64,000 bases of DNA from IMG/VR virus record IMGVR_UViG_3300032335_000777, positions 45,984-109,983 of that record; one strand, given 5' to 3'. Numbering within the stretch: the stretch's first letter is position 1; the number at the start of each line of letters is the position of its first letter. Below the pieces are notes generated by a model, which ran no database searches, had not been told where the DNA came from, and saw only the letters and a list, made by a program, of their open reading frames with translations. This document shows positions 1-46,037 of the stretch, piece by piece. Source of the stretch: a virus. Lineage: Duplodnaviria > Caudoviricetes. The position numbers were made by a program, and so were the translations under genes.

Positions 1-3000
1 CCATTCACCATTCTTAAGCTTCACTTCTCTATAAGCACCATCAATGATCACTGAGAAACCATCAGCTTCATCATATCCTCCAAACTTCTTAATAAACTTA
101 GAGAATGGGTTTACATCATTTAGTGTAGCAGTTTTAACGTATGACTTAAATGTATAACGAAACTTATCATCTGCTTCTAGAGATAGGTCTTCTGTTACAT
201 CATTGAATCTATTATTTAGAAACTTATTGAATTCTGGATGATCAATAGTTACTCTTCTAGGAGATAGCCAAGACTTGATACGCTTGGTTTCATCTAGTTT
301 ACCATTTTTAATTTTGAATTGATAAGGATCGCCAAATATAAATTTGTGCATTTCAATGTTTGCAATCATGTAGTTCATGTTTACAAACGAAAGCACCTGC
401 ATCATCTCGTCTTCAGATAATGAATTTCTATTCAATTCATTAGTTTGAGCAAACTTGCTATCTAAAGTTTCATATCTATAACCCTCTGAATTTTTTGTCA
501 CTTCACCAGAATTAATCAAATCTTTCAGTGTTGATTGATTTAGACTAGTGATTGTATTTCTAATAGAATTTTCTAGAGCTTCATCACTAACAAGAGCTAG
601 AATGTCCTTTCTAGATTTACCTTCTTTAATAGCTTTATGTATCTCTTCAACAAGTGGTGCATCAAGAATATCTTTGAAGAATCTAAGTTCTTTAGCGTTA
701 TCTTTTGCAGAAGCAAGTTTTGATCTTGTTTCCCAATCAAGGGCCAAATCAACCTCATCTTCTAAGTATCCCTTGAAGATGCTCTTGATTTTTGTAAATG
801 CTCTTTCAGCATCGTTGTTGAATAGTTCATACTCAACCATTGATCCTAGATTCAGCATTCTTTCTGTAGAAGAGTCTGCTGGTACTAAGATGTAATAGTT
901 ACCATTTATGTTTTGATTGATTTCAACAGTGAATCTGTCACCCTTTGTCAAAGATGATATGGATAGTCCTCTATCAGTAGTCTCATCTTTCAATCCATCA
1001 ATTACACCAATCTGTAAAACTTTACCTTCAATCTTATTACCATTATCATCATAGAACATTCCACCCTTCTTAATCAACAAGCTGTTCTTTGAGAATGCAT
1101 CTTTTAGCTCTGGTCTTGCTTCAAATAGTTCATCAAGAGTCATTGCCTCATTGAACTCTGCTTCGAATACAGAAGGAGCGTTACTATCTGTGAAGTTACT
1201 TATACGCTTATTCTCTATGTTAAATCTAGTTGTATCCTGGTCAGGATTAACTAGTCTAACATACATATCTGCAAGAGTTCTCACATGAGAGTCCACTCCT
1301 GAGAACTTGTCTCCAGATAATGAAGCATATCCATTTGGACCCATTTCATATATCTTGGTTACAGCATTATCAAACCTCTTATTAAGTTTCTCATCATTAT
1401 TTATCTTTTCAATAAAGCTTAATGGGAACTCAATGCCTATATTCTTCAGATAGTTTTGTACAGCCTGTGGCTTAAGAAGACCTTCTTTAGTTGGATATTC
1501 TTTTTGGTCTTTATTAATTGCGTAAAGTGTTATTCCTTTGTCACCTTTCTTTTTGAAAATAAATGATGTTTCTGATTTAGAAAGTTGTTTTATATTTTGG
1601 AACCACTCGTTTCTAGTTTTATTCAAAGCAGATGTTCTATCACCAGGAGCAGTGAATGATTCAACACCACCATCTCCCTCTCTTTGAATTGCTATTTCAA
1701 CAAATGGATTACTCTTAGACATTGATTGAATAAACTGAATATAGAATCTCCAGTCAGCTTCTTCAAACTTGCTATAATCAAGAATTCCATTCTTAGCATC
1801 GCCACCAAGTCTATTGAAGATTCTGTAATAGTTACCATCTTCTTTTACCAGATCAATAATTTTTTGATCAACTTTTGCCAAGCTTGTATTAGAAAGCTTG
1901 TTCAATAGGGTTGCGAACGTCTTATTAAAATTGTTTAGAAGACTCAATCCCTTCACTGACTTAGATCTTAGCAGCTTAGGAGCAGTACCTTCTGGATAAA
2001 CAGTTTCAGCTGCTGGGTTAGAAGCCAATACAAACTTCACAGAGAACCTCATGTTCTTTTTGAAGTCTATTTCAAAGGCTTCAGCAGCATAGAGTCTATC
2101 AGTTTGGCTAGCATCATTTGTACTAACCACACCTTCAGTGTCAATATTTATACCCATTGTTCTAATTAGATCTTTTGATCTCAAGAACAAATCTTTGAAA
2201 GCCTCTTCTCCAAGAAGTTCTATGTTGTCAGTATATTCACTTCTCAAGAAATTGTACACTTCTTTTCCAGTGACAGATCTTGGATTGAATAGTTTTTCCA
2301 ATCCATCAGTGTTGTTTCTATTGAAGATGTATTCAGACATTGTAATAGTCATGTCCTGAACAATTGCCCAAGCCTCATCTTCAGATAATACACTACCATC
2401 TGCTATACTTATCTTTCTGTATTCAGGAGCTGCTGATTTAGCTTCTTCTGAAACAACATAATCTTTGAACTTACCTGTATCAATAGACTTGAACAAATCA
2501 TCTTTGAGAGATGGCTTTGCAACAAAGCTTTTGAAGAAGTCAACAATAGCCTTGAAGAAGTTTCTTATCTTCTCAGACAATGTTCTAGCTGGCAGCTTAC
2601 CAAGTCTATAGTCAGCAAAGTCATCAGCAATACGTTCTTTAGCTTGTCTATCTGTAGCATTACTGTATGCAACAAGTTGACCACTTTCTCTATCAAGGAA
2701 ACTACCACGCTTAGATTTAAACTCATCTAGAATAGCTTGTCTCTCGCCTTCTGTCAAGAATGCTTTCCATACACCTTCAAAGACTTCGTGATATTCTGTA
2801 CCACTCAAACCACGTCTGAAGAACTTAGCAACTCCGCCTTCAAATACACCCCATGCCTTAGAACCATCATGTAGTGTGATGATGTTCTCAAGGATTTCAA
2901 ATGGTATGTTAGGAACATTCTTTGCATGCCAAGCTTTGAATGCTTCAATGTCTCTATCACTTATTCTTCCACCACGTTCACCAGTACGAACTTTTCTAGT

Positions 3001-6000
3001 TTCCTCATCTTTAACACCAGACTTAAATCCTGATAGTCCTTTCTTTTCTTTAGGTGCTTCTTTTTCAACAGGTGCAGGAGCTTCAGTAGGTGCAGATTCT
3101 TCAATAGTTGGTTCAGTAGTTTCAGAAACAGGAGCCTCTGGAGCAACAGGAGCTGGAGCTGGTGCTTCATTAATTGCAGCTTCCACTTTACTTGCTGCTT
3201 CACCAATGTAGAACACTGTTGCTGCATCAAAATCATTTAGTCCTTCTGTTGCTGTAGGATATTTCTTTCTAGCAACTTCAATCTTTTTAGGATTGTCAGC
3301 AAACTTCTGTATTGTCTCTGCATTAGTTTCTGGAGAGATTGCATCAATTTCAATTTCACCACTTGGTAGAATGTTAGCTTTGAAACTAAACTCACCACCA
3401 AACATGGTTACAGTGTTTACAGTGCCATCGTTAAGAGTGTATGGTCCCACTGTAACAGGAACGTCAGATTCAATTATATCTGATGGTCTTACTGGAGCAC
3501 CTGAGCTAGAAGGGCTTGGGGGATCTTGTTCTTTCTCACTTGGTACATATCCTTCATCACCTGTCTCAAAGTTAATCAGCGTAGCATACTTACCTGCAAA
3601 TGCGTAAGGTTGTGCTTCTGTAGGATTTGCAATTGTTACAAATGGAATCTCATCTGTAGTTCTGTCTTTACCAGAGGCAAGATAGGATTGATAGTTTGGC
3701 CATTCTCTTTCTTGTAACTTACCATCTTCAAGGAAGTATTCAAAGAATGGACTTTCTAGTCTCAATGTTTTAGCATTGGCAGAATGATACATCTCAGAAA
3801 GCTGAGCAACAATCTCTTGTTCTTTAGAAGCGATTTCTGAGAACTTATATGATTGTGATCCAAGCTTAAGAGTGAGGTTTTCTGTGTCAAACCAAAACTG
3901 ATTATCTTTTGCGTTTTCTGTAATCTTCTTATAGTTGAGAACATTCTTCAAGAACAATAATTTGTTCTTGTCAAACTGAGGAGCTTTACCTTCGCTAGCA
4001 TCCTTCTCAAGCTTTGTTATAATAGACTTAATAAGTTCGTATGCTGTAGCAGCTTTCTTCTTACCAAGCTTATTATTGTTTAGATATTGTAATAGGTCAC
4101 CATTTTGAATGTAGACAAGTCCTTTTTTAGAATTTACAATCTTACCATTGTATGAAATAGTATCAGTGGTAACAACATTTATAAGTCCTGGAATAGTAGC
4201 TATTGCAGTTTCATCAACTAAAGAACTAGTTACAGGATTCTTTTTATATACACCACCCTCTTTTTTTGTATTAGCAAAACCTGCTGAAACTCTAAATTCA
4301 AGAGTTGGAGGAACTGTAGAAGGCTTCATAAGTTCTACACGTCTGTTTCTCCAAATCTTTGCAAACTTTACAAAGTCATCCTTCTCATTCGTTCTATATC
4401 TATCATTTCCTCTACTATCTGTAATAGATGTGCTAGGCATTGTTTGGAATATAACCTTTCCAAGATCAGTAGGTTGACCCACTTCACCAATGCGCTTACC
4501 ATCCTGATCTACAAAGTATCTCTTCTTACCATCAATCTCAACAAATACCATTGCTACGAATCCATTGTCTTCATTCATGACTCTGGATTCAAAAGCAGCT
4601 TTATCAGCATCCACTTGCTCTTGTGTCATTTTGTATGACAAAGCTGTAATGCCAGATAGGCCAAGAGATTCTTCTTGGCTGTATGTAAATACAATTGCTC
4701 TAAGCTTATTTCTATTCTTAAATTTTCTGATTTTATTTAAGAAAATTCTTGATCTTGTTACATGAGGCTCTGACTTAGAAGTGTCAGCAAATTCCTCAGA
4801 CTCTGTAATACTAGAATCAAAGAAATCTATAGCACTTTTCATTCTACCAGTTTCGCCTGTATCAACTCTTTCTCCAACATCTTCTGGGAGAGTGCCTACA
4901 GGGAATGGTTCGTTGTCAGAAATATCTTCTTGTTGTTTATCAAGAGAGCTACTAGATTCTTTAATCTTATCAGCTATTTCTTTTGCCTTAGCTTGTTTTT
5001 CAAGCAGTTCTTTAGTAAGTCTTTTAAATCTATTTATAACAGCTGCACTGATCTTTTTATCACCAAGAGAGTTAATGTATTCAAGTTTGTTTACGCCTTC
5101 TCCTGGCTTCTCATATATGTCTCTGAAGGCAGGATATTGAAGTACATCATCAATAGATTGATTCAATGCATCTTCAAGTTCCTGAGAAGTGTTATCCTCT
5201 TCAGTGATGTTGTATTTATTAAATTGTTCAGGAGAGAAGAACGTAGCAGTACCATCAGGTAGTTGCACTTCAAACTCTCCACCAAGTGTACTGGATAATA
5301 CAGTGAACTTTGGTGCAAGAACGATCTTTCCTTTTTCTAAAGTGATGGGTTCAGCAAGAGAATAGGTTTTGCCCAATTCTAAAGTTTTCTGAACTTTCTT
5401 TCTACCTTCTTTTTGAGAAACTTCTACATCTTGGATTTCTTCCTCTGGACGTTCGTAGTTTAATGGATCATTCTTAATACTATCGTATTCTCCAATAAAC
5501 ATCTTTCTTCTTAGAGATAGCTCAATAACATCGTCTAGAGTGCCTTTGAGTTCATCCTTAACATCAGATGTCACACTCATTGAGTTAATTGTTTCTAGAG
5601 CTTCTTTGGTAGCTTCAGCGTTTGGTTTACCTGTCTCAATAATGTCTTGGAGAATTGCTTGTGTATTAATACCAGCAGTGGTCAACTTAACATTCAGTTC
5701 AGGAATCCTTACATCATAGTTTGCAATTTTAGTACTTGCATAAGCAAGCATGTCAATTGCAAAAGGAGAATACTTTCTTTTTTGTTCACCATCAACTTCT
5801 ATAGTCTCACCAGCATATCTAATGTTCAAAGCCTGATACATATCACTGAGAGCCTTTGCAGAGTTCTCAATGCTAGTGATTCTTTTCTGGAAGGTTTCAA
5901 CAGTATCGTTGATGTTTGCCATTCCTTGTTCCTTAAGTTCAGTGAGACCTTGTTCAGTCAATCCACCTTTCTTAAGTTCATCCAGATCTTCCATCACCAT

Positions 6001-7767
6001 ATCAAATCTTCCGTATTTGATACGTGGTGCTAGATAGTTATACATCTGGTCACTGTACAAGTCACGCTCTTCTAATCTATCACCATTGATGATTGCGTCT
6101 CTATGTTGTTGTTGTAATACAACGCCTCTGTTAGCAGCAGCAAGTCTATCTTCAAATGCTTCTTTGAACGATGGTGCATTATTCATCATGTTCAAAAAGA
6201 TCTCTGTATTCTTTGCCAGAGCTTTTCTTTCTCGATAGGTACCTCTTGCTTGCATCAAGCCACCAGTGATTCCTCCAAGAATACCACTCTCAATACCTTC
6301 TTTAGATACAAGAGCACCTACGCCTTCTCCAAATTTATCTTTACCAAACAATCCATACAAGAAGCCATCTACAAATAGATCAGCTTCTCCACCTTCTTGA
6401 GCCTTCTTAAAATAGTTTTGTGTACCTACTTGCAATCCATATTGTAAAATCTCTTGAGCTGATTCTTTTGGATCAAACACATAAACCCCACTTCTTTTTA
6501 CACCTTGATAAAGTTTACCAAATCTAGTTTTTGGTCCAGCTTTGGCTACATACTTTCCTGTCTCATCAATTACAAAATCATCAACTCTTCCTAGCAAACT
6601 GTTTGCAGCTTGTCTACTTGCTGAATAGCTTGATCCCATCAAGTATGGAAGTTGTGAATATTCTGTAATAGACAACAATGCCATGTTGCCAAAGAAAGCA
6701 GTTTTACCAACTCTCTCAGCTTCAACATTTATATTTTTTAAGTCTTCACCAATTGGAGCAAATCCATTTTTTTTAGTGTACTCTTCAATTAAATTTTCTC
6801 TAAATTCTTTAGATGTATGCAAAGCTTCGAACGATGCTTCACCAGCAGATGAATTAATTGCTACAGCAGTTCTTCTGAAATTATCACCAAACTTTGCAAA
6901 CTGTGTAGTTTGTTTAGCCAGGTTAGCCAAAGCAGAAGATCTTGCAGACAAATCTGCTATAGATGAAATCTGACTTTCTAATATAGATGCAGCCTCTACA
7001 TTTTTAGCAGCTGAGAATGCTCTTGATGTGTTTCTTAGAAGTGGTGTAAAAAGTTTAAATCCTTGTGAAGCTTCAGCAATAGTTGCAGCTCTAGCAGCTG
7101 CGCTACCTATTGTTGAACCAAGTCTTAAAAGTCCAGCATTTGCAATGTTACCAGTAACCATTGCCCCCACTGCAAATCCAGCATTCTTGATTAACTTATC
7201 AAAAAGAAAGTTGGTTGTAAACCAGTTATCTGTAGAATACCACTCAGAATTTTTCTCAGCAGCTGTATAATAGTTTGGAAGAAACTCATTATCAACTTTA
7301 GTATTCCACTTATCCAATCCACGCATTACTTCATTGTCAAATACATCAGACATTTTCTGTGTAAATAACAATGACTTACCAACACCATATAGCATACCAA
7401 ATCCACCAGCTACTGTAGTGGCTGCAAGGTTTGCTCCTTTCAATACACCATTGGCAGCTTGCTTATACCAAGCTTGCCCTTGTGCAGCAAAGTCTTCGTA
7501 GTCTCCAATTGTAGGATTGAAAGTTTTGTATCTCTTATTTGCTTCAAGTTCTGCATTGCTAACAAACAATCCCTTTTGAGAAAACTTTTGTCCAGCAGCT
7601 GCTAGTTCAGCAAATACATCTTCCTTCTGAGAAAGATCTGAAACTCCACCACCTTGTCCAGAACTAAAGTTCATTGGAGGATCCTTTGGTGCAACTAGTG
7701 GAATATTAGAAGATTTGTAACCTGTTTCTTTAATGATGGGTTGTAAGTTTCTATCAAAATCAGCCAT
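1..7767 (-). CDS. Giant virion-ejected protein with crAss-type virion RNA polymerase region (3' partial, >2589 aa)
   Basis: ATG at 7767 (MADFDRNLQP...). Spot-checked stretches are open to the window edge, and having no stop in the window explains its absence from the ORF track. Hydrophobic Gly/Ala-rich N-terminal helices, a zincin-like segment GTEYHEVFEG (~2776-2800), and near the edge EMHKFIFGDPYQFK..DETKRIKSWLSP and YDEADG, resembling crAss/phi14:2 gp66-type RNAP motifs. The catalytic DxDxD would lie outside the window. Confidence 0.8.
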   Translation of the reverse strand, partial: MADFDRNLQPIIKETGYKSSNIPLVAPKDPPMNFSSGQGGGVSDLSQKEDVFAELAAAGQKFSQKGLFVSNAELEANKRYKTFNPTIGDYEDFAAQGQAWYKQAANGVLKGANLAATTVAGGFGMLYGVGKSLLFTQKMSDVFDNEVMRGLDKWNTKVDNEFLPNYYTAAEKNSEWYSTDNWFTTNFLFDKLIKNAGFAVGAMVTGNIANAGLLRLGSTIGSAAARAATIAEASQGFKLFTPLLRNTSRAFSAAKNVEAASILESQISSIADLSARSSALANLAKQTTQFAKFGDNFRRTAVAINSSAGEASFEALHTSKEFRENLIEEYTKKNGFAPIGEDLKNINVEAERVGKTAFFGNMALLSITEYSQLPYLMGSSYSASRQAANSLLGRVDDFVIDETGKYVAKAGPKTRFGKLYQGVKRSGVYVFDPKESAQEILQYGLQVGTQNYFKKAQEGGEADLFVDGFLYGLFGKDKFGEGVGALVSKEGIESGILGGITGGLMQARGTYRERKALAKNTEIFLNMMNNAPSFKEAFEDRLAAANRGVVLQQQHRDAIINGDRLEERDLYSDQMYNYLAPRIKYGRFDMVMEDLDELKKGGLTEQGLTELKEQGMANINDTVETFQKRITSIENSAKALSDMYQALNIRYAGETIEVDGEQKRKYSPFAIDMLAYASTKIANYDVRIPELNVKLTTAGINTQAILQDIIETGKPNAEATKEALETINSMSVTSDVKDELKGTLDDVIELSLRRKMFIGEYDSIKNDPLNYERPEEEIQDVEVSQKEGRKKVQKTLELGKTYSLAEPITLEKGKIVLAPKFTVLSSTLGGEFEVQLPDGTATFFSPEQFNKYNITEEDNTSQELEDALNQSIDDVLQYPAFRDIYEKPGEGVNKLEYINSLGDKKISAAVINRFKRLTKELLEKQAKAKEIADKIKESSSSLDKQQEDISDNEPFPVGTLPEDVGERVDTGETGRMKSAIDFFDSSITESEEFADTSKSEPHVTRSRIFLNKIRKFKNRNKLRAIVFTYSQEESLGLSGITALSYKMTQEQVDADKAAFESRVMNEDNGFVAMVFVEIDGKKRYFVDQDGKRIGEVGQPTDLGKVIFQTMPSTSITDSRGNDRYRTNEKDDFVKFAKIWRNRRVELMKPSTVPPTLEFRVSAGFANTKKEGGVYKKNPVTSSLVDETAIATIPGLINVVTTDTISYNGKIVNSKKGLVYIQNGDLLQYLNNNKLGKKKAATAYELIKSIITKLEKDASEGKAPQFDKNKLLFLKNVLNYKKITENAKDNQFWFDTENLTLKLGSQSYKFSEIASKEQEIVAQLSEMYHSANAKTLRLESPFFEYFLEDGKLQEREWPNYQSYLASGKDRTTDEIPFVTIANPTEAQPYAFAGKYATLINFETGDEGYVPSEKEQDPPSPSSSGAPVRPSDIIESDVPVTVGPYTLNDGTVNTVTMFGGEFSFKANILPSGEIEIDAISPETNAETIQKFADNPKKIEVARKKYPTATEGLNDFDAATVFYIGEAASKVEAAINEAPAPAPVAPEAPVSETTEPTIEESAPTEAPAPVEKEAPKEKKGLSGFKSGVKDEETRKVRTGERGGRISDRDIEAFKAWHAKNVPNIPFEILENIITLHDGSKAWGVFEGGVAKFFRRGLSGTEYHEVFEGVWKAFLTEGERQAILDEFKSKRGSFLDRESGQLVAYSNATDRQAKERIADDFADYRLGKLPARTLSEKIRNFFKAIVDFFKSFVAKPSLKDDLFKSIDTGKFKDYVVSEEAKSAAPEYRKISIADGSVLSEDEAWAIVQDMTITMSEYIFNRNNTDGLEKLFNPRSVTGKEVYNFLRSEYTDNIELLGEEAFKDLFLRSKDLIRTMGINIDTEGVVSTNDASQTDRLYAAEAFEIDFKKNMRFSVKFVLASNPAAETVYPEGTAPKLLRSKSVKGLSLLNNFNKTFATLLNKLSNTSLAKVDQKIIDLVKEDGNYYRIFNRLGGDAKNGILDYSKFEEADWRFYIQFIQSMSKSNPFVEIAIQREGDGGVESFTAPGDRTSALNKTRNEWFQNIKQLSKSETSFIFKKKGDKGITLYAINKDQKEYPTKEGLLKPQAVQNYLKNIGIEFPLSFIEKINNDEKLNKRFDNAVTKIYEMGPNGYASLSGDKFSGVDSHVRTLADMYVRLVNPDQDTTRFNIENKRISNFTDSNAPSVFEAEFNEAMTLDELFEARPELKDAFSKNSLLIKKGGMFYDDNGNKIEGKVLQIGVIDGLKDETTDRGLSISSLTKGDRFTVEINQNINGNYYILVPADSSTERMLNLGSMVEYELFNNDAERAFTKIKSIFKGYLEDEVDLALDWETRSKLASAKDNAKELRFFKDILDAPLVEEIHKAIKEGKSRKDILALVSDEALENSIRNTITSLNQSTLKDLINSGEVTKNSEGYRYETLDSKFAQTNELNRNSLSEDEMMQVLSFVNMNYMIANIEMHKFIFGDPYQFKIKNGKLDETKRIKSWLSPRRVTIDHPEFNKFLNNRFNDVTEDLSLEADDKFRYTFKSYVKTATLNDVNPFSKFIKKFGGYDEADGFSVIIDGAYREVKLKNGEW

Positions 7768-10386: not shown

Positions 10387-13041
10387 TTACATAGATTTGA
10401 TTGCTTTTACAAGAGCTCCGTTTCTTTTACCACTTGATGATTTCTTAGCCATTTCTGCTGCTGTTTTTTCTTCAAGTTCTTTTTGAAGAGCCATGAGTTT
10501 ATATTGGTCAGAAGTCATATTTCCAAACGGTGTGTCAGAAGCTCCAGATCCTTGAGGAGCAAACTGAGCAAGAGGATTCATATTCATTGCTCTGAAGCGT
10601 GGATCAAATCTGTAATTGTAAAGATTCTCGTATGTCTGAAGGGCTCTGTTCTCAGCTTGATTCTGTAGATATTTAGCAGAAATAGAATTAAGAGCAGCCT
10701 GTGCTGTAGCCTTTGTATTAGAAAGAGCTTGTTGTTGTCTTACATACTGTTCGCCAAGAATTCCAAGATTTTGAGCACCAGCTTGATTTAGAAGATTTCT
10801 ATTTTCAGCAAACACCTTATCTCTCATAGATTGATTCAATCTAAACTGCTCACCAAGCACCTGTTGATTTGCTTGATACTTCTGTGCATTCAATGCAGCT
10901 AATGCAGCTGGATTATATCCAATCATTCTTTGAGCAGCTCTGTAATCAGCTTGGTTCTTATTGATAATGTCTTGAAGAGAAATATCATAAGGTGTGCTTA
11001 ATTGTGGTTGGAAAGTTTGTGCTTGTACAGGCTCTAATTGATTTTGAGCAAGAGCAAGCATCTCTCCAGATAGCTGACGTGGATCAAGAGCTTCTGCATC
11101 AGTTGGTCTCACGTAAGGTAAGATTTGATTAGCTATTGTCATCCAATCAAATTCTTCTTTAGTAGGCTTGGATTTTTGTTTAATTCCTGCCTTCTTAACA
11201 CTTTCAGGAACTTTAATTTCTAAACTTCCTGGTCCTCTTTGCATTTCTCTTTTAGCAAGTACATCAACCCCTGGTAAATCAATGTATTCTGGATAAGTCT
11301 CTAGTTGATTTTCTAACATATATCTAACTCCAGGTTCCAATGCTAAAGCATCTCTATATATCTTATCACTAATGTCTTCACCACCTTGAGCTTTCTTAAT
11401 AGAAGCTCCTTTCTTAGCTTGCTTCACTTTACCCTGTGCTAAATCATCAGCTACAAGATTATATTCTTCAGCAGTGTCATTGATAGCAGATTGTAGATCA
11501 GCTAGTTTTATTTTCTCATCAGCAATGTTCTTGAGCTTTTGATTTGCTCCAAGCATGTTTGCTTTGTATGATTCAAACTTGAGTAGGTCGTAAGGATTAT
11601 TAACATCTAGGTTGTCAAGTTCTGTAACAGCCTTATCAATAAGTTTATTTTGTTTCTGTTCAGTTTTAGATAGGTCAGCAACATAGTTTTTAAACTTCTT
11701 ACCTGCCGCTTTAGGAGCACCAATCATCTCAGCACCAAACTTTGGAACTTTTAAGTTACCATACACTGTAAGACTGTTTTCCCCATCTGATCCATTACGA
11801 AGTTGTAAAGCTGGTTCTCCTCTTTCCACTTCTACAGGACTATCACCATAAGTGATTCCAATACCTGTATTACCTTTTCCATCAGACTCATCGTGGGACT
11901 TACCTCTAAACATTACAGTTTCTCCTCCTTCAGGAAGATAAGGATTGTATGACATAGGTTCTGCATATCCACCCCAATGAGTTTCAAGATCACCACCCAT
12001 AGCAAACTTATCTCTTCCTGTATACATTGCACGTTCACTAGGAGGAGTGTAACTTTTCAAATGTCCACCTGCACGTAATGTATCCATTGTTGGATCAGGT
12101 TGTAACAATTGACTCAATTTGTAATTACCAAACTGATTAATTACTTGTGGATTTGCAATACCACCATCTCTCATATAAGAGGCGTTTGCTTGCTGAAGAG
12201 ATTGTGCTCCTTGACCAAGAGCACTTGCCATTACATTTTGATCAGTTATACCTTCGTACCGTTTTGTTTTCCTAACATTTCCGCTACCTACAAGATTACC
12301 AAGAGTTTGACCAGCAACCTTTCCAATCATTCCTCCAACTGGACCACCAAGTAATGTACCTGCTACACTTCCAATTCCAGCACCTACTCTTCCAGCACCA
12401 GTAACGCCATATCCTTTTGGACTTCCAAGTCCAGCAGTAACTTGTGCTAAAGCATCTCCACCACCTTGTTCTGCAAATTCATATACATCAGATAGTTGAC
12501 CCTGGACAGCATTTTTTCCTGTTGCCATTTTCATGAAGTCAGGATTAGTTTTAAACTGTGGAAGGTTTAATCCACCTTGAGCTTCTTCTAAATCTGTGTA
12601 AATAGTATTAGGAGCAAATGTATTTGCTATCTCTGTTCCATTCTTTGCAAGAGTGGTTCCTACACCATAAATTGGGAAGAACTCTTGTCCTGTATTAATA
12701 TTATCTTCTGGACGTACATATTTTTTCTGAACTTGCTCAGGACGTGTCATAGAAGCTTGAAGAGAAACATCACTCACACCAGCCATTTGTTGAGCCTTTA
12801 GCATGTTTTGTTTTTCATCCTTCATTTGTTGAATACCACCAACAACATCACCAACAGACTGAACTCCAGCAGCAAAGGCATTGCTTCCAGCAAGCTTATT
12901 CATCATTGCCATTGCTCCTCCTTGTTGGAGTTTCTTTACTTGTTTTCCATACTTAGCCATGAAAGACTCCTCTGTAGGAAACTTTTTATAAAACTCCTTC
13001 TCAGACTTAACACCTGCTATCTTTAAAATTTCAGCCTTCAT
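10387..13041 (-). CDS. Virion cargo protein with Gly-rich hydrophobic segment
   Basis: 884 aa; AGIGSVAGTLLGGPVGGMIG membrane-like segment, GKSH..G..VEVERGE motif, many hydrophobic-x-x-GG motifs, Gln/Ala-rich coiled C-terminus. Confidence 0.65.
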   Translation of the reverse strand: MKAEILKIAGVKSEKEFYKKFPTEESFMAKYGKQVKKLQQGGAMAMMNKLAGSNAFAAGVQSVGDVVGGIQQMKDEKQNMLKAQQMAGVSDVSLQASMTRPEQVQKKYVRPEDNINTGQEFFPIYGVGTTLAKNGTEIANTFAPNTIYTDLEEAQGGLNLPQFKTNPDFMKMATGKNAVQGQLSDVYEFAEQGGGDALAQVTAGLGSPKGYGVTGAGRVGAGIGSVAGTLLGGPVGGMIGKVAGQTLGNLVGSGNVRKTKRYEGITDQNVMASALGQGAQSLQQANASYMRDGGIANPQVINQFGNYKLSQLLQPDPTMDTLRAGGHLKSYTPPSERAMYTGRDKFAMGGDLETHWGGYAEPMSYNPYLPEGGETVMFRGKSHDESDGKGNTGIGITYGDSPVEVERGEPALQLRNGSDGENSLTVYGNLKVPKFGAEMIGAPKAAGKKFKNYVADLSKTEQKQNKLIDKAVTELDNLDVNNPYDLLKFESYKANMLGANQKLKNIADEKIKLADLQSAINDTAEEYNLVADDLAQGKVKQAKKGASIKKAQGGEDISDKIYRDALALEPGVRYMLENQLETYPEYIDLPGVDVLAKREMQRGPGSLEIKVPESVKKAGIKQKSKPTKEEFDWMTIANQILPYVRPTDAEALDPRQLSGEMLALAQNQLEPVQAQTFQPQLSTPYDISLQDIINKNQADYRAAQRMIGYNPAALAALNAQKYQANQQVLGEQFRLNQSMRDKVFAENRNLLNQAGAQNLGILGEQYVRQQQALSNTKATAQAALNSISAKYLQNQAENRALQTYENLYNYRFDPRFRAMNMNPLAQFAPQGSGASDTPFGNMTSDQYKLMALQKELEEKTAAEMAKKSSSGKRNGALVKAIKSM

Positions 13042-17640: not shown

Positions 17641-20600
17641 TTACGAAGGTCCCTCAGTTGTAGTAGTTGTAGTAGTTGGTGGAGGGGAGCAATCACATTG
17701 TGGATCAAGACAACCAACACCTTGAGATAAGAATCCACAATCATCACTTATAACTTCAGTGACACATGCAGTGAAGCATAGTCCTTGATCTTCAGAAGGT
17801 ATGTTGTAAGTTATAGTTACACCATTTTCATTCTTGTATACAAATGTGCAACCACCAAATGGAGCTGATGTTAATATGTAACATTCAGATGGTATTTGAG
17901 TAGTTGATGTAGTTACTGTTGTACTTGTAGTTGTAGTGGTAATTGGATTTTGAGTGGTAGTTGTTGTAGTCGTGGTAGGTCCCTGAGTAGTTGTAGTTGT
18001 TGTAGTCGAAGGTGGAGTTGTGGTAGTTGTTGTGGTTGTAGTTCCACAAGTTCCAGCCAACACTTGAGTTATTTCATTTGTATAGTTTGTGTGTGTATTT
18101 GATTGCAAATAATACAAAGTACTCAAATTACCATTTATATAATAGAAGCCATTTGCATAATTTGTAAATGACCAGAATGGTTGAGGATTGGTGGTATTAC
18201 AATTTACATCTACATCGTATATCAAGAATGTATATTGAAGAGTAGTAGTTGTAGTTGTAGTTGTGGTAGGAATGCCTGTAGTGGTAGTTGTACTAGTTGA
18301 GCTAGTTGTTGTAGTTGTAGTTGGTGGTATAGCTGTAGTTGTTGTAGTGGTTGTAGAACTTGTCGTACTAGTAGTTGACGTAGTGCTAGTGGTTGACGTA
18401 GATGTTGTACTAGTGGTCGTACTAGTAGTTGATGTGGACGTGGAGGTTGTAGAAGTTGTAGAAGTTGATGTCGTACTTGTTGATGTTGTAGTGGTAGTAG
18501 TTGGATTAGGAACCAATGTTCCCACTAAGAAATCAAACTCTTCACAGCAATTATTTTGTCCAGAATAGAAGAAGTTATTCTCTGCAATATAGAAGTTTGG
18601 AAGATAGCTGTGGAAGCTTATCCAACTCTTTGTATTCATGTTGAAAGACAATGTCCATGATACATTGCAGAAGTATTCTTCATCACTAAGACTAACATCT
18701 TGTCTTATGGTTAGACCATTAACAACATTATTGATGTAGAAACTTTGTTCCACTGGATCATATAGAATGTTATTTGACTTTGGTGCATAATCAAGTTTTG
18801 TAATAATCACTCTATCATACACAGCATCATACACACCATGTAGTCCTATTCCCTTGAAGTGATTGTCAATTTTCACATCTGGGAAGTTATTATCAATCAT
18901 GAATGGTAGATGCTCAACAAAGAATCTGTTCATTCCTGATCCAAACCCAGACAAGTCAGTCACTTGTGTTCCCTGAATCAAGAACACTTGTCCTCTCTTT
19001 GCATCTATTGTAATTTGACCTTGAGGAATCTTTAGAAGCATCTTGTGTTGACTTCCTACATATCCAAGATCAGTTTCAGCAAAGTCAATTGGAGGAGCAC
19101 CTCTAAATAATAATGGATTACCTACATAAGCAGCTTGAGGGTTGCTTGTGTCGATAGTCAATAGATTATTGTATAATAATGACTTATTGTCAAATCTGGC
19201 TAGAATAGCTTTGTTTTGTATACCATCTAAGCTTACAAGATTTCCATAGTTCTGTGGGAAATCAAAGTAAGAAATAGCTCTATAGATAAGCCAGTTGTTT
19301 ATTCTATTGTCAGCATCAATGTTCTGGGCATCAGAATAGATTGTTCTGAATGGATAGTTTGTAAAACAAAGTCTTGCTTCCCAATCAGGAGGCAAATGAG
19401 TGAACGTATTCTCTTTGTTTTGCTTAGAGAATGTGGTGTTATAGAAGTAGGTGTTGTCTTGTGCAATAGGCACAAAACTTTCCTGAACCCAATCATCTGG
19501 AATGTCTGTACTAACATGTGGCCAGAATTCTCCTTCTCTATTGTTGAATGCTTGTCTTAAATCAAGGTTGTAAGAACTCTCGCAATAGAAGTTTGGAATA
19601 CCATAGGCAAACAGATAGAAGTAACCATCATAATATGTAATGGTTGAGCTTGGTGTCACTGCTCCAGATCCACCTGGAGGGAATGTTGTACTACTAGTAG
19701 TGGTGGTGGATGTAGATATAATCACATCTGTTCCCACTTCATTAGGACAGTCAAAGTTATGTGCTTTGTAAGAAATGATGTTTGCCATCACTCCTTGTCC
19801 AGGAATGCTGTAGTTCTCGAGAATTGATCTTGCAGAGTGCCAGTATCTAGGATAGGCAACATTACCTATCTCATCATAGAAGATGTCACTATCATCTGGA
19901 GCATTCACTCTATTGTCAATAAAGAATGGAAGCTTTGTTTTGAATGCGAACCTGCTAATAAATGTATCACCACCAAACACTGTAGTGGTTGGATTAGGTG
20001 AGTTAATTATGTATTGATAACCTGTATCAATTGTTTCGTATGAATAGATTTGTCCCCACTGATTGATGATTATATCTTTCAGTGATGCATAATATGAAAC
20101 AACCTGTATAGGTTCTTCTTTAGCTGGTGTTGAGCAGTTTCCTATTTCTGAAATAGTGAATCTTGATCTGTCTGAAACAATACTTGTTATTCCAGAAAGC
20201 ATGTTTGGACTCTGGTTAGGATAGGGAAGAGCTGTAGTGTCTATGTTTGTTTTTACAAAAACAGAGCTTTCTCTGTTCCAGTTGTTGATTGGAAGATCAT
20301 CACCAAGAGCTTGTACACCTGGGATTAAGTATCTAGATATATCAAGTTCTCTTTGTTTGATTCCTTGATTATCAGGAACACCTACACCATAGTTATAATC
20401 AGCAATAGAATTAAATGAGTATGCGTAGTTTCTTCTAGTGATACCATTAACGTAGATGGTCAAATAAGACTGATATGCAGTGAACATGGCTGTCGCACTG
20501 AATGGTGTAGTGATACCTCCAAGTCTAGCAGAACTATCAAGAGCAGCCTTCTGTGCAGCTTCAGTGAGCAGTTTGTATTTGGCATTATCCCTCACCTCTA

Positions 20601-22989
20601 CAAAGTGAGCTTTACCTGCACCAAACATTACACTTTCTAGCTTAAGAATGTCTGCTAGGAATGGTTGACCAAATGATGTCTCTGGAGAGTTGAAGACTTG
20701 TCTATATCTGTTCTCATCAGTGAAACCATCAAGTAGTGTTGTACCACCACAACTTAATGCTGATCTCACTTGTGATATAAGGTTTATTTGAGCATCTGCA
20801 CAACTTGCTGTACATATTACTGCTGTACCAGCAACCACCTCAACAATGTCAGCTGTGTCACCAACACTTAAAATTGTTGGACCTAAGAATCTGTCATCAT
20901 AAGATGCTGTGAATGTAGCACCTAGAGGAGCATCCAATTCATAAACATCATAGTTAGCATATCCTACATCACCTCCACCAATAATTATTGTTGGTCTACC
21001 AACAGCACAAAGCTCATCATCCTGTATAGAAGTGTAATCCTTGTAAACAATTTTGTTGTTCTCACAAGAATAATATTGAATTCTAGCTAATGGAACACCA
21101 GTGACTGGATCAGTTCCTAGGCTAGTGATGAATATATTAAATGGCTCACACTGACCTTGGTAAGCATTGTTTGTTGTTGTAAGAAATGGATCGTCATTAA
21201 GATCGTTGTAAGGATAGTTGGGGAAATAGAACGATTGATCTTCTCTTTGATATTCACCAACGTTTCTAAGAATACCTTTAGCTACAATAGACTTGTTAAC
21301 ACTTCTATCACCACGTACAATTTTAAATCCTACAATGTCAGCTTTCTGATCATCTGTAAGATTTGATACCTGAATTAAATTTAGTATTTGTGAAGGATCA
21401 AGTTTTACACCAATAGGAAAAACAGCATCATTTCCCATCACCATTGTTTGTGGTGTGGAGAAGATTTTACTTTCGTAAATAGGTGAGATGTTTACATCTG
21501 GGAACTTGTGGTGTCTGATTTTTTGTCCTGCAAGACTTCCCCACACGTCTGTGTTGCATGGGTATTCTTCAGCAGATTCCCAATAGGCAAATTCCCCAAA
21601 TTGATATGGTCCCTTGTAAGAAACATTTGTTGAATATTCTGGAGAGAATCCTGTGACAGAAGCTGTGTTATAAATCTTCCAATACGGTGCATCATGCGTT
21701 AATGGGTCTGGTTGTCCTATAAAATCTGGATCTGTATCAGGAATATTTGGTAGTAATTGTTCGTACGCTGTAATAGCTTTTCCTGGAATATGGAAACCAT
21801 CTGTCTGCTTTCCATTCTTTAAAAGAAAAACTATCTCAAAAGCATACACTTCATCACGAAGATATCCTCTTAGATTCGTTGCGTTTATTTCGTTTGCGTA
21901 GTTTTCTGTTGGAGGAATTCTCCAAGTTTCCCATAGCAAATCAATATTATTAGCGATTTGTTGATAGTTGATTCTATCAATTGATGTTAACTGGTCCCAT
22001 ACAAGAACATCTTGCACAGCCGTTAGGTCTTGAGCAATCTCATAGAATGGAAACTTCTCAAAGATGTCAGCAATGTCAAGAACAATTGTTGATTGACCTG
22101 TGTATGTAATCTGTCTAATACTATTGTTAATAAAGTATGTACCAACAAGATCAACAGATGTTACACCATTGATTGTCTTGATTACAGCAAGATTAAAATA
22201 TTCAAACTGTCCAGTTGTATCAAGGTTGTCAATGGTAACAACAATAGACTTTCCTACAGGGTAGTTAAAGTTAACTGATATAATAAACTCATCAGCGATA
22301 GGTGTAGGATTGGTAACTGAGTAGTAGGATGTAAATGGGTTACCAGCTGGATCAGAGTATTGAACAGCAAACTGATATGTACCAGCAATAAGATTTCCAC
22401 CACTAACAACATCAGTGATTACTATCTCAGGAATATTAAAATTAGGCTGTAGCTTAAGTTGATTACAATCAAGATCATCTGTATAGATTGGACTACAGAG
22501 AGGGCTTCCTGATCTAAGAATCTTAGGAATGTCATCAATGTCCAAATATCTTCTAGGATTGTAACCATCTGTCCAATAAATCTCTGTATTGCAGTTTGTG
22601 ATTCTATGGACAACTTTATGTATAGGATAATTGATATTGAAGTTTAAGCAAGGAGCATTTACCAACACTCTGTAAACACAATCATTATTATCCATGTAGC
22701 CAATCTGGCTATCTCCTGTTGTGGGATTTGTAACAAAGAATATATGTTTATTCTTTTCTATAATAAAGTGTTCACCTATAACAACAGATCCTTCAGGTAC
22801 ACGAATACAGAATTCGTTACCAGATTCGTTCTGATAGTTTACAGAATTAGAATCAAAGTTTTCAACAGCAGCGTTTAGAGCATAAGTTAGCCTCCCCTTT
22901 TGAATTTGATTCAGTGACTGATCAAGATTCAATCCTGTAGTGGCATTGTTATACTCCTGTCTGACGTTACCTTCTCCTTGCTCAGCCAT
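17641..22989 (-). CDS. Tail stabilization/muzzle protein with Thr-rich C-terminal extension
   Basis: 1782 aa; GLNLD..ALNA, IYWTDGYNPRRY, YLRDEVYAF, IRHHKFP, FGGDTFISRF, SWTLSF..WISFHSYLP motifs typical of this crAss-like family. Confidence 0.75.
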   Translation of the reverse strand: MAEQGEGNVRQEYNNATTGLNLDQSLNQIQKGRLTYALNAAVENFDSNSVNYQNESGNEFCIRVPEGSVVIGEHFIIEKNKHIFFVTNPTTGDSQIGYMDNNDCVYRVLVNAPCLNFNINYPIHKVVHRITNCNTEIYWTDGYNPRRYLDIDDIPKILRSGSPLCSPIYTDDLDCNQLKLQPNFNIPEIVITDVVSGGNLIAGTYQFAVQYSDPAGNPFTSYYSVTNPTPIADEFIISVNFNYPVGKSIVVTIDNLDTTGQFEYFNLAVIKTINGVTSVDLVGTYFINNSIRQITYTGQSTIVLDIADIFEKFPFYEIAQDLTAVQDVLVWDQLTSIDRINYQQIANNIDLLWETWRIPPTENYANEINATNLRGYLRDEVYAFEIVFLLKNGKQTDGFHIPGKAITAYEQLLPNIPDTDPDFIGQPDPLTHDAPYWKIYNTASVTGFSPEYSTNVSYKGPYQFGEFAYWESAEEYPCNTDVWGSLAGQKIRHHKFPDVNISPIYESKIFSTPQTMVMGNDAVFPIGVKLDPSQILNLIQVSNLTDDQKADIVGFKIVRGDRSVNKSIVAKGILRNVGEYQREDQSFYFPNYPYNDLNDDPFLTTTNNAYQGQCEPFNIFITSLGTDPVTGVPLARIQYYSCENNKIVYKDYTSIQDDELCAVGRPTIIIGGGDVGYANYDVYELDAPLGATFTASYDDRFLGPTILSVGDTADIVEVVAGTAVICTASCADAQINLISQVRSALSCGGTTLLDGFTDENRYRQVFNSPETSFGQPFLADILKLESVMFGAGKAHFVEVRDNAKYKLLTEAAQKAALDSSARLGGITTPFSATAMFTAYQSYLTIYVNGITRRNYAYSFNSIADYNYGVGVPDNQGIKQRELDISRYLIPGVQALGDDLPINNWNRESSVFVKTNIDTTALPYPNQSPNMLSGITSIVSDRSRFTISEIGNCSTPAKEEPIQVVSYYASLKDIIINQWGQIYSYETIDTGYQYIINSPNPTTTVFGGDTFISRFAFKTKLPFFIDNRVNAPDDSDIFYDEIGNVAYPRYWHSARSILENYSIPGQGVMANIISYKAHNFDCPNEVGTDVIISTSTTTTSSTTFPPGGSGAVTPSSTITYYDGYFYLFAYGIPNFYCESSYNLDLRQAFNNREGEFWPHVSTDIPDDWVQESFVPIAQDNTYFYNTTFSKQNKENTFTHLPPDWEARLCFTNYPFRTIYSDAQNIDADNRINNWLIYRAISYFDFPQNYGNLVSLDGIQNKAILARFDNKSLLYNNLLTIDTSNPQAAYVGNPLLFRGAPPIDFAETDLGYVGSQHKMLLKIPQGQITIDAKRGQVFLIQGTQVTDLSGFGSGMNRFFVEHLPFMIDNNFPDVKIDNHFKGIGLHGVYDAVYDRVIITKLDYAPKSNNILYDPVEQSFYINNVVNGLTIRQDVSLSDEEYFCNVSWTLSFNMNTKSWISFHSYLPNFYIAENNFFYSGQNNCCEEFDFLVGTLVPNPTTTTTTSTSTTSTSTTSTTSTSTSTTSTTTSTTSTSTTSTTSTTSTTSSTTTTTTTAIPPTTTTTTSSTSTTTTTGIPTTTTTTTTTLQYTFLIYDVDVNCNTTNPQPFWSFTNYANGFYYINGNLSTLYYLQSNTHTNYTNEITQVLAGTCGTTTTTTTTTPPSTTTTTTTQGPTTTTTTTTQNPITTTTTSTTVTTSTTQIPSECYILTSAPFGGCTFVYKNENGVTITYNIPSEDQGLCFTACVTEVISDDCGFLSQGVGCLDPQCDCSPPPTTTTTTTEGPS
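17650..18505 (-). repeat. Poly-Thr/Ser low-complexity coding tracts (ACN codon runs)
   Basis: Imperfect gtN triplet runs on + encoding mucin-like Thr tracts, longest ~18240-18505. Confidence 0.9.
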
Positions 22990-41161: not shown

Positions 41162-41387
41162 TAAGTAAAATGCAATGGTTTTATGGTAATGTACAATTTA
41201 ATAAAGTTTTACGCGGGAAAACTAAAACTTCATGTTGTACTTTATCAAGAATTAGTTGTGAGTAAGGGAGTAGGAGTGACACCACACACGTAATAAACAC
41301 ATGTTTTCGTAAGTGTTGATTTCTGTATTCACTATTTTATATAGCATTAACCACATAAAATGGCTGTACACAGCTAAACTAATAGTC

Positions 41388-41525
41388 ATGAGAAAGTATT
41401 CAATGATAGAAGTGTATTCAGATCTATATAAATGTTCTGATTTCATTCTTGAGCAAGTTATTGCATGCAATGAAGATGTGTTTAGCCTAGCAGCTAAGAG
41501 AGTTTTGTTAATTAGAAGCCTATAA
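41388..41525 (+). CDS. Hypothetical protein (45 aa)
   Basis: ATG 41388 preferred over the ORF-track start; abuts the next gene. Confidence 0.5.
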   Translation: MRKYSMIEVYSDLYKCSDFILEQVIACNEDVFSLAAKRVLLIRSL

Positions 41526-41526
41526 T

Positions 41527-41709
41527 ATGGAAAAGTCATTAGATGAATTGGTATATGCACTCTCTTTTGAGTGTAAAGAAGCTGTCTATTCTAACATAGA
41601 ACATAAAGAGTTTATTAGACAGATGGCAAAGAAGCTTGAGGAATTAGCTAGACAAATTAGTATTGAACATTATATTGCTATGCAAGAATCTTCTTACAAT
41701 GGACAATAA
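41527..41709 (+). CDS. Hypothetical protein
   Basis: 60 aa, followed by a terminator. Confidence 0.6.
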   Translation: MEKSLDELVYALSFECKEAVYSNIEHKEFIRQMAKKLEELARQISIEHYIAMQESSYNGQ

Positions 41710-41735
41710 GAGCCTGTAATAGGGCTCTTTTGTTT
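41708..41735 (+). terminator. Intrinsic terminator
   Basis: AAGAGCCU/GGGCUCUU stem plus UUGUUU. Confidence 0.75.
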
Positions 41736-41889
41736 AAATGCGTCATAACCTGTTTCCCAAGGACAGGCAGTTGTAGTTGGTTATGTCCTTACTAGTTAGG
41801 ATATAATCTGTAGACCTACTGTCACATAGATGACAGCATGTATAACATCGCCAAAGATGTGGGGCTACAACTGAACGCAGAGGGATATA
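41731..41889 (+). ncRNA. Twister-like self-cleaving ribozyme with large P5 insertion
   Basis: AA-UGCG(P2)-UC ... CCUGU-UUCCCAAGG-ACAGG (P4/L4) ... P5 ... CGCA-GAGGG; CCC/GGG pseudoknot; P1 weak. Confidence 0.6.
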
Positions 41890-41918
41890 TCATTGAAATA
41901 TTAAACACACAAATAAAC

Positions 41919-42155
41919 ATGGACAATATTCATTACGATAATCAAAGGATATATTGTGAGAACAATAAGGTTCCTTTCTTCGCTTCTTCATCTTGTGACC
42001 ATATGTATGGTTGGGTTAATGATGAAAGATATGGCAACACCCAGACATTAACAGAAATGTTAATTGAAAGATATGGGGATGAACAAGCATTTATTATAGC
42101 ATCTTCTTCACATATTACATCTTGTCCTGGATGTTGCAGAAGTTGGTGTGATTAA
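41919..42155 (+). CDS. Hypothetical Cys/His protein
   Basis: Start ATG 41919 (upstream extension overlaps the RNA element); SCDH and CPGCCRSWCD. Confidence 0.6.
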   Translation: MDNIHYDNQRIYCENNKVPFFASSSCDHMYGWVNDERYGNTQTLTEMLIERYGDEQAFIIASSSHITSCPGCCRSWCD

Positions 42156-42160
42156 GATTT

Positions 42161-42275
42161 ATTGTATGTGGCCACGTAGTGCCTTAATCCATCCGTGATG
42201 CATGTGTAAACATGTAGGATGGACATACAATTTCATTTGGAGGGTCAGATGCTCCCAAGCAGGTGCAAGGCCTGC
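42161..42275 (+). ncRNA. Structured intergenic element (3-way junction plus T-loop-like hairpin)
   Basis: AUUGUAUGU/ACAUACAAU closing stem, two inner arms; then GGAG/CUCC and GCAGG-UGCAAGG-CCUGC. Confidence 0.45.
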
Positions 42276-42309
42276 ATTTATTTATTCATTCATTTAAACG
42301 CACAACATT

Positions 42310-45844: not shown

Positions 45845-46037
45845 CATTACAATGTGCAAAGGGACAAACTGTCCCCAGAAAGAAAATTGTTATCGCCACA
45901 CCGCTAAGCCTAGCGAGTTTTGGCAATCTTGGTTTATGGAACCGCCTATTGAGGATGGTAAATGTGATTACTATTGGGGAGAGAATGCAAAGAATATCTG
46001 GAATCAACTCAAGGATATTGTAAAAGGAAAAGAATAA
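45837..46037 (+). CDS. Cys-rich small phage protein
   Basis: DITMC.G..CP.KE.CYR..A......QSWF..PP....CDYYW. Confidence 0.7.
   Translation: MPDITMCKGTNCPQKENCYRHTAKPSEFWQSWFMEPPIEDGKCDYYWGENAKNIWNQLKDIVKGKE

Follow-up and report, generated by a model that had tools for sequence, protein, structure and literature searches.

Organization of the locus

The window analysed here, a stretch of 64,000 nt from a virus of the Caudoviricetes (IMG/VR record IMGVR_UViG_3300032335_000777, positions 45,984 to 109,983), carries an element of about 150 bases between two small phage genes. The element extends from 41736 to 41884 on the plus strand and is built in the order N-AA, P2, P4 with the loop UUCCCAAGG, P5 with an insert of three hairpins, P2′ and GAGGG. 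The features of the locus are listed below in window coordinates.

41527..41709 (+): upstream small ORF of 60 aa, stop codon at 41707-41709; no PHROG match
41708-41729 (+): terminator-like hairpin directly 5′ of the putative ribozyme (consensus scan)
41730-41735 (+): U tract after the terminator-like hairpin
41736..41738 (+): N(-1), here A41736, then A41737-A41738; AA invariant in 35/35 and 43/43 aligned copies
41739..41743 (+): P2 5′ strand UGCGU, pairs with 41875-41879; 100% paired in the family
41744..41748 (+): J2/4 CAUAA; leading C-A invariant (C20 and A21 of the alignment)
41749..41753 (+): P4 5′ strand CCUGU; all 5 pairs covary, 99% of cells paired
41754..41762 (+): L4 loop UUCCCAAGG, 9 nt; C41756-C41758 form T1 with G41882-G41884
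41763..41767 (+): P4 3′ strand ACAGG; covariation with 41749-41753
41768..41778 (+): P5 5′ strand, forming 11 bp with 41863-41873 that end in two U-G pairs (minimum-energy fold)
41779..41862 (+): P5 insert, a four-way junction with three hairpins (minimum-energy fold)
41779-89/41798-808, 41819-24/41831-36 and 41845-49/41856-60 (+): insert hairpins a, b and c (minimum-energy fold)
41863..41873 (+): P5 3′ strand (fold and family covariation)
41874 (+): J5/2, A41874; A in 111/112 copies
41875-41879 (+): P2 3′ strand ACGCA (family covariation)
41880..41884 (+): GAGGG, invariant save for compensated variants; G41882-84 are the 3′ strand of T1
41919..42155 (+): downstream small ORF of 78 aa, ATG at 41919; no PHROG match

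P2 of the window comprises UGCG (41739-42) and CGCA (41876-79) together with a fifth pair, U41743-A41875, known from relatives. The minimum-energy fold of the element recovered P2, P4, P5 and the three hairpins inside P5, and had a z-score of -3.28, with none of 200 shuffled sequences being as stable. The AA, P2, P4 with its loop, P5 and GAGGG had already been assigned by a sequence-only reading of this DNA, and all of these pieces were found where it had placed them. The same holds for the terminator that it had seen directly in front of the element, which the consensus scan recognized as the hairpin at 41708-29 with its U tract, and for the three further hairpins in P5, two of which (b and c) show compensatory changes in the relative L013. 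The two other departures from twister that had been pointed out, a weak or absent P1 and an L4 one base longer, are present as well: P1 is nearly missing in the window copy, with no more than a single pair in the twister register, and L4 has an extra 5′ U compared with the twister consensus. The base at -1 is the rarer A in the window copy and U in 106 of 112 relatives. By homology with twister, the scissile bond is predicted to be 41736/41737, in agreement with the site named in the sequence-only reading; A41737 stands at the position of the twister general-acid adenine and G41880 at that of the general-base guanine. The terminator-like hairpin may also serve as the 3′-end hairpin of the upstream cleavage product.

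With respect to the phage itself, the region 41300-42200 had no blastn match among GenBank phages, and ARAGORN reported no tRNA or tmRNA. The structural arm contains giant ORFs at window 1-7767(-), with more than 2589 aa, and at 17641-22989(-), with 1782 aa; for the former, no PHROG match was obtained over the 1500 residues searched. Since no useful names came from PHROG searches with the small ORFs on either side and with the giant structural ORFs, the phage is not called crAss-like here.

Related elements in phage metagenomes

Two pattern scans of IMG/VR, one with a looser 5′ pattern and one with an independent 3′ pattern, returned at least 120 loci each. More than 150 distinct copies of the family were read from the IMG/VR matches listed, and the 5′ pattern scan contributed at least 112 unique full copies. 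The 19-base P4 hairpin was present in 15 IMG/VR contigs, always inside the same conserved 5′ and 3′ cores and with P5 inserts that differ among the contigs. A covariance model (R1), built from an alignment of 35 short copies (A1) from which the window copy was left out, matched the window once with 75-80 bits and an E-value of about 1e-20. The recurrence in 15 contigs and the covariance-model match exclude a chance origin of the window element. A second copy was absent from the window, as searched by R1 with filters off, and from the whole 110-kb record, as searched by R1. In many phages the element occurs two to four times at intervals of a few hundred bases, in some cases back to back.

The elements are co-oriented with the flanking ORFs in 71 of 84 cases, and a terminator-like hairpin with a U tract lies directly upstream of 16.5% of the members, compared with 3.2% of control positions. 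In many unrelated copies (L053, L107, L125, L126 and L185, for example) a short A/U-rich motif, UAUUAACUUA, was noted a few bases 3′ of GAGGG, which could be a common 5′-leader or start-region signal. A pattern scan of bacterial genomes gave mostly chance matches and about eight to ten apparently real copies; the three that were checked are located on MAG contigs, two of them from Chitinophagaceae (one Sediminibacterium), which provides a weak hint at the host.

In Rfam searches, no twister match was found on the whole window at the gathering level or on 41650-41960 at E-values up to 10, and the window sequence gave spurious matches alone (a miRNA family and SraG). The sequence-only reading had proposed a search with the twister-P1 model, and the outcome was divided: the window copy was not matched, whereas L003, a copy with a P5 loop of only 6 nt, gave a partial match of 18.8 bits (E 0.12 in 221 nt; cut-off 67.2) that is in register over P1, UAA, P2, P2′ and GAGGG and skips the interior. 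A canonical type-P1 twister with P3, L2 GC, GC at the loop end and a compensated T1 (CCA/UGG) was found at L197:3715-3779(+) with 57 bits and an E-value of 2e-11, just below the cut-off; it shares its phage locus with two members of the variant family. The lineage is abundant in phage metagenomes and absent from the Rfam catalogue, and literature searches found no paper that describes it.

Covariation of the helices

Pairing in P2, P4 and P5 was evaluated in 43 copies, a sample gathered mostly with patterns that fix the loop and part of P2. Paired bases were found in 90.5% of the cells, compared with 74.1% for shuffled partners (the observed value was reached in 0 of 500 shuffles) and with 31-52% in slid registers. 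Besides the five covarying pairs of P4, where more than ten different stems occur, covariation was observed for 7/8 pairs at the base of P5 and for 3/5 pairs of P2. The fifth pair of P2 is C-G in 84 copies and U-A in 27, without exception.

P1 was part of no search pattern and was assessed by counting how many uninterrupted pairs the sequence immediately ahead of N(-1) can form with that immediately after GAGGG. The mean was 2.44 contiguous pairs, compared with 1.20 +/- 0.10 after shuffling of the partners (highest value in 1000 shuffles, 1.59) and 0.5-1.0 for registers slid by 1-3 bases, and 33% of the copies have a P1 of at least 4 bp (4-8 bp). Since the pairing is confined to the exact twister register, P1 is regarded as real in the family.

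Pseudoknots and invariant bases

The T1 pseudoknot was examined by a scan in which any triplet was permitted in the loop and after G-A. Among the 93 elements obtained, 87 have CCC/GGG, three separate elements have CAC/GUG and one has CCA/UGG, the remainder being one uncompensated copy and one regex artefact. Compensatory C-G to A-U changes therefore occur at two of the three T1 pairs, and T1 is 100% paired in alignment A5. In the window copy, C41756-58 can pair with G41882-84. The exact 9-nt loop was present in 67 of 68 plain copies, a sample that was chosen by the 3′ end alone. The helices vary freely, but three parts are invariant: the AA that stays unpaired, the first two bases of GAGGG (G-A) and, in the loop, UCCCAAG. 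Taken together with the covariation of P2, P4 and P5, the register of P1 and the in-register twister-P1 match on L003, the compensated T1 bears out the earlier description of the element as type-P1 twister-like, and the conserved pairing of P2, P4 and the pseudoknot that this description had predicted for relatives is present (43 copies; 93 elements for T1).

The second pseudoknot of twister, T2, in which the GC of L2 pairs with the GC at the 3′ end of L4, has no counterpart of this sequence: in the window and in essentially all copies, L2 has YC-A and the 3′ end of L4 is GG, and the bases of possible T2 substitutes never vary. C41744 is a candidate partner of a loop G in a reduced T2. Two rewired arrangements would fit the data. 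The first, Y-G plus C-G, would keep two T2 pairs; the second combines an extra P2 pair with a single C-G ('5+1' for '4+2'), in which P2 and T2 together would still stack six layers high. The second is favoured by the perfect Y-R covariation of the fifth P2 pair. A C-to-U plus G-to-A change in L179 was considered as T2 covariation and rejected, as this copy is decayed and has lost GAGGG. In published tests of twister ribozymes, defects of the short GC/GC pseudoknot lower cleavage, wobbles excepted, and this is the main reason for caution with regard to catalysis.

Insertions and derived relatives

The shortest P5 insert of the family has 6 nt and the longest exceed 300 nt, with no sequence or architecture common to them, and the insert of the window copy matches no Rfam family. 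A conserved sensing domain is unlikely in view of this range of lengths without common sequence. The sequence-only reading had suggested an allosteric or protein-binding domain in P5, a suggestion that found no support in the family, and cleavage gated by an insert that senses a ligand or protein, as in an allosteric ribozyme or riboswitch, is considered very improbable. This reading could draw on the well-folded insert with its three hairpins and compensated stems, and on a separate subfamily in which an insertion in L4 is conserved in sequence; however, L003 manages with its 6-nt P5 loop, and in the published tests all P5-bearing twisters cleaved at more than 0.80 and P5 length had no effect.

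In the subfamily just mentioned, a conserved two-hairpin domain of about 100 nt lies at the 5′ end of L4, just 5′ of UCCCAAGG. Its members are L151:7009-7175(+), L150:11188-11440(-), L056, L191, L157, L149, L146, L196, L177, L138, L145 and L198; the insertion contains conserved sequence blocks, and the domain has no Rfam match.

A further group of relatives, variant B, retains P2, P5 and the 3′ core and has lost the L4 loop. Instead, an upstream CCC pairs with GGG as an ordinary helix (in one copy CUC with GAG), so that the T1 strand has formally been relocated to the 5′ end, and the AA and GA positions are not conserved. Members were found at L152:633-822(+), L145:6532-6652(+), L144:905-1028(-), L197:533-636(+), L167:11054-11213(+) and L137:11804-11941 and 12494-12651(+). 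These are presumably non-cleaving derivatives, and they indicate that the scaffold is able to persist without the twister active site. Decayed copies were observed in L179, L164 and L158.

The window element, or its lineage, might likewise have lost catalysis and be a twister-shaped, non-cleaving structured RNA, whose role would be to stabilise the mRNA downstream or to bind a protein of the phage or its host. This is judged unlikely, even though several observations would agree with it: the canonical T2 GC/GC is missing and P2 is one pair longer, the window copy is without P1 and has A at -1, the decayed copies exist, and variant B keeps P2, P5 and the GGG pairing without the loop. The bases needed for catalysis and docking (AA, G-A and UCCCAAG) are, however, invariant in more than 100 copies with varying helices; AA and GA vary in variant B, as expected if they are constrained solely where cleavage is retained; and T1 is preserved through compensatory changes. 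The loss of P1, the A at -1 and the presence of P5 are all tolerated by tested twisters.

Exchange of units between intergenic sites

The unit at window 41737-41884 is identical at 147 of 148 positions (99.3%) to units of other phages, at L006:879-1049(-), L009 and L016, and even the hypervariable P5 insert is identical in all three, whereas their flanks are unrelated to those of the window on both sides. In total, 26 pairs of near-identical units were recorded, 9 of them without flank similarity; in these 9 pairs the similarity ends close to the unit, 0-3 nt before its first A and 0-5 nt after GAGGG. Units that are 90-99% identical in unrelated flanks were found in L124/L170, L185/L269, L072/L171 and L028/L093/L060/L126.

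Filled and empty sites were observed as well. Window position 42234/42235 is an exact empty site into which a complete twister unit is inserted in L123, where the flanks of the unit are 96% identical to window 42162-42295 over 121 nt. Four further homologous intergenic regions exist in a filled and an empty form (L053/L182, L069/L048 and L133, L107/L018, L126/L024). Based on the identical units in unrelated flanks and on the filled and empty sites, units are gained, lost and exchanged as discrete pieces, and this unit-level cassette exchange is a new finding.

The surroundings of the empty site (42161-42300) have a fold z-score of -2.9 and comprise a Y-shaped domain at 42161-42231 and two hairpins, at 42237-42258 and at 42259-42275, the latter terminator-like; no Rfam family matches this region. 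A possible second or permuted twister at 42240-42262, in a hairpin that contains UCCCAAGC, was rejected, as it has no support from Rfam or R1 and offers too little room for P1, P2 and P4.

The discrete behaviour of the units at the DNA level, and the fact that the conserved cores could be used as recombination sites, would agree with a DNA-level element such as a recombination site, an origin or a promoter, whose RNA structure would be incidental. This is extremely unlikely, as the pairing is strand-specific (many G-U pairs would be A-C on the other strand), compensatory changes maintain the pseudoknot, the elements are mostly co-oriented with genes, and the fold is that of a known ribozyme.

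The 5′ boundary of each cassette coincides with the predicted cut site. Unit boundaries at the cleavage site would suggest that the ends are set at the RNA level, for example by the release of unit-length RNAs from tandem copies. A rather unlikely extension of this observation is that the unit, reaching from the first A 3′ of the cut to GAGGG, is a self-contained mobile element of phage genomes whose DNA boundaries are its own RNA cleavage site and which spreads between unrelated intergenic sites and phages. No RtcB and no reverse transcriptase were found in the phage record, so that the searches revealed no phage gene for an RNA-mediated route. If the idea is correct, the mobile unit spreads by a route without a described precedent among prokaryotic viruses, and if the gain, loss and transfer of cassettes reflect a true mobility mechanism, they offer a handle on the build-up of ribozymes around phage genes.

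Proposed function of the element

The element at window 41736-41884 (+) is quite probably a self-cleaving ribozyme of the twister class, from a phage lineage that is abundant and uncatalogued, with cleavage being assigned by homology. In the proposed structure, P2 (5 bp), P4 and P5 would join at a three-way junction, and the P4 loop would dock back by pairing of its CCC with the GGG of the 3′ GAGGG (T1). This docking would set A41737 as general acid and G41880 as general base around the bond A41736/A41737. Cleavage there would leave an upstream product with a 2′,3′-cyclic phosphate end just past the terminator-like hairpin and U tract, and a downstream product with a 5′-OH at A41737 that consists of the folded ribozyme followed by the small early gene of 78 aa. 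Read-through transcripts would in this way be cut into separately stable messages, and the upstream RNA would receive the same hairpin-protected 3′ end as by termination. Such a role in the processing of read-through RNA fits the enrichment of terminators in front of the elements and their co-orientation with genes.

Twister is among the best-studied small ribozymes, yet there is still no explanation of its biology in bacteria and phages. Since the lineage is invisible to Rfam, annotation pipelines miss what is probably a common RNA-processing signal of phage early operons. The lineage also represents a natural experiment on the twister fold, in which the second pseudoknot has apparently been rewired (extra P2 pair, altered loop end, no conserved GC) and large domains are tolerated in P5 and even within L4.

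Comparison with twister and other known systems

The closest known system is twister-P1 (RF03160, clan CL00120; for example O. sativa Osa-1-4 and env22), which has been reviewed previously (PMC5408937, PMC6154101). The lineage shares with it the order P1, N-AA, P2, P4 with the UCCCAAG loop, optional P5, P2′, GAGGG and P1′, the T1 pairing of the loop CCC with GGG, the positions of the catalytic A and G, and a P1 that is variable and dispensable. Compared with the Rfam twister-P1 consensus, 14 of the 16 strongly conserved bases are retained; L2 has YC for GC, and the last base of L4 is G for C. P2 has 5 bp instead of 4 bp, and P4 has 5 bp and a 9-nt loop with the extra 5′ U. P3, which is present in 78% of twisters, does not occur in the lineage, whereas P5, found in about 1% of twisters, is always present and usually large. 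The helix order around the N-A-A / G-A-G-G-G loop, T1 and the conserved bases save the last one of L4 are thus those of twister; T2 GC/GC, a four-bp P2 and a score at the Rfam gathering cut-off are lacking. The lineage therefore appears to resemble twister in its working, and strict membership fails on T2, P2 length and Rfam score. It corresponds to neither the type-P5 nor the canonical type-P1 form known to Rfam.

Published tests of twister ribozymes bear on several of these features. P1 was dispensable in tested twisters, and the 4-bp P2 was suggested to be length-critical (PMC5408937). All four bases at -1 were functional, with a mean of 0.72 for A, and changes at the A after the cut abolished cleavage (PMC11662667). 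The natural G-to-A change at the equivalent of G41880 lowered mean cleavage only from 0.76 to 0.54 (PMC11662667); given this mild effect, G41880A, which had been put forward as a control for a cleavage assay, is a weak one.

Twister-sister (PMC5660989) is similar in having a multi-way junction and a P4-type loop of similar sequence, but it has no T1-type pseudoknot and cuts the opposite strand of the internal loop (PMC5408937). The lineage described here has a T1 that covaries and a twister-type NAA/GAGGG loop, and the Rfam twister-sister model gave no match on window 41650-41960 or on L003.

Twister ribozymes near phage genes, clustered with other ribozymes, have already been described (PMC10085705, PMC6765202). 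Like the present elements, the phage and prophage twister and hammerhead ribozymes are intergenic and in sense orientation, often several per early operon and sometimes back to back, and are presumed cutters of polycistronic RNA; in contrast to them, the window copy is single and located behind a terminator-like hairpin. With respect to the exchange of units, the eukaryotic hammerhead retrozymes (PMC7761336) and the Schistosoma non-LTR twister variants (PMC8501958) are comparable in that a ribozyme spreads within a repeated mobile unit whose ends relate to the cleavage site. Those elements are eukaryotic and need reverse transcriptases, whereas here the unit consists of the ribozyme alone and resides in DNA phages.
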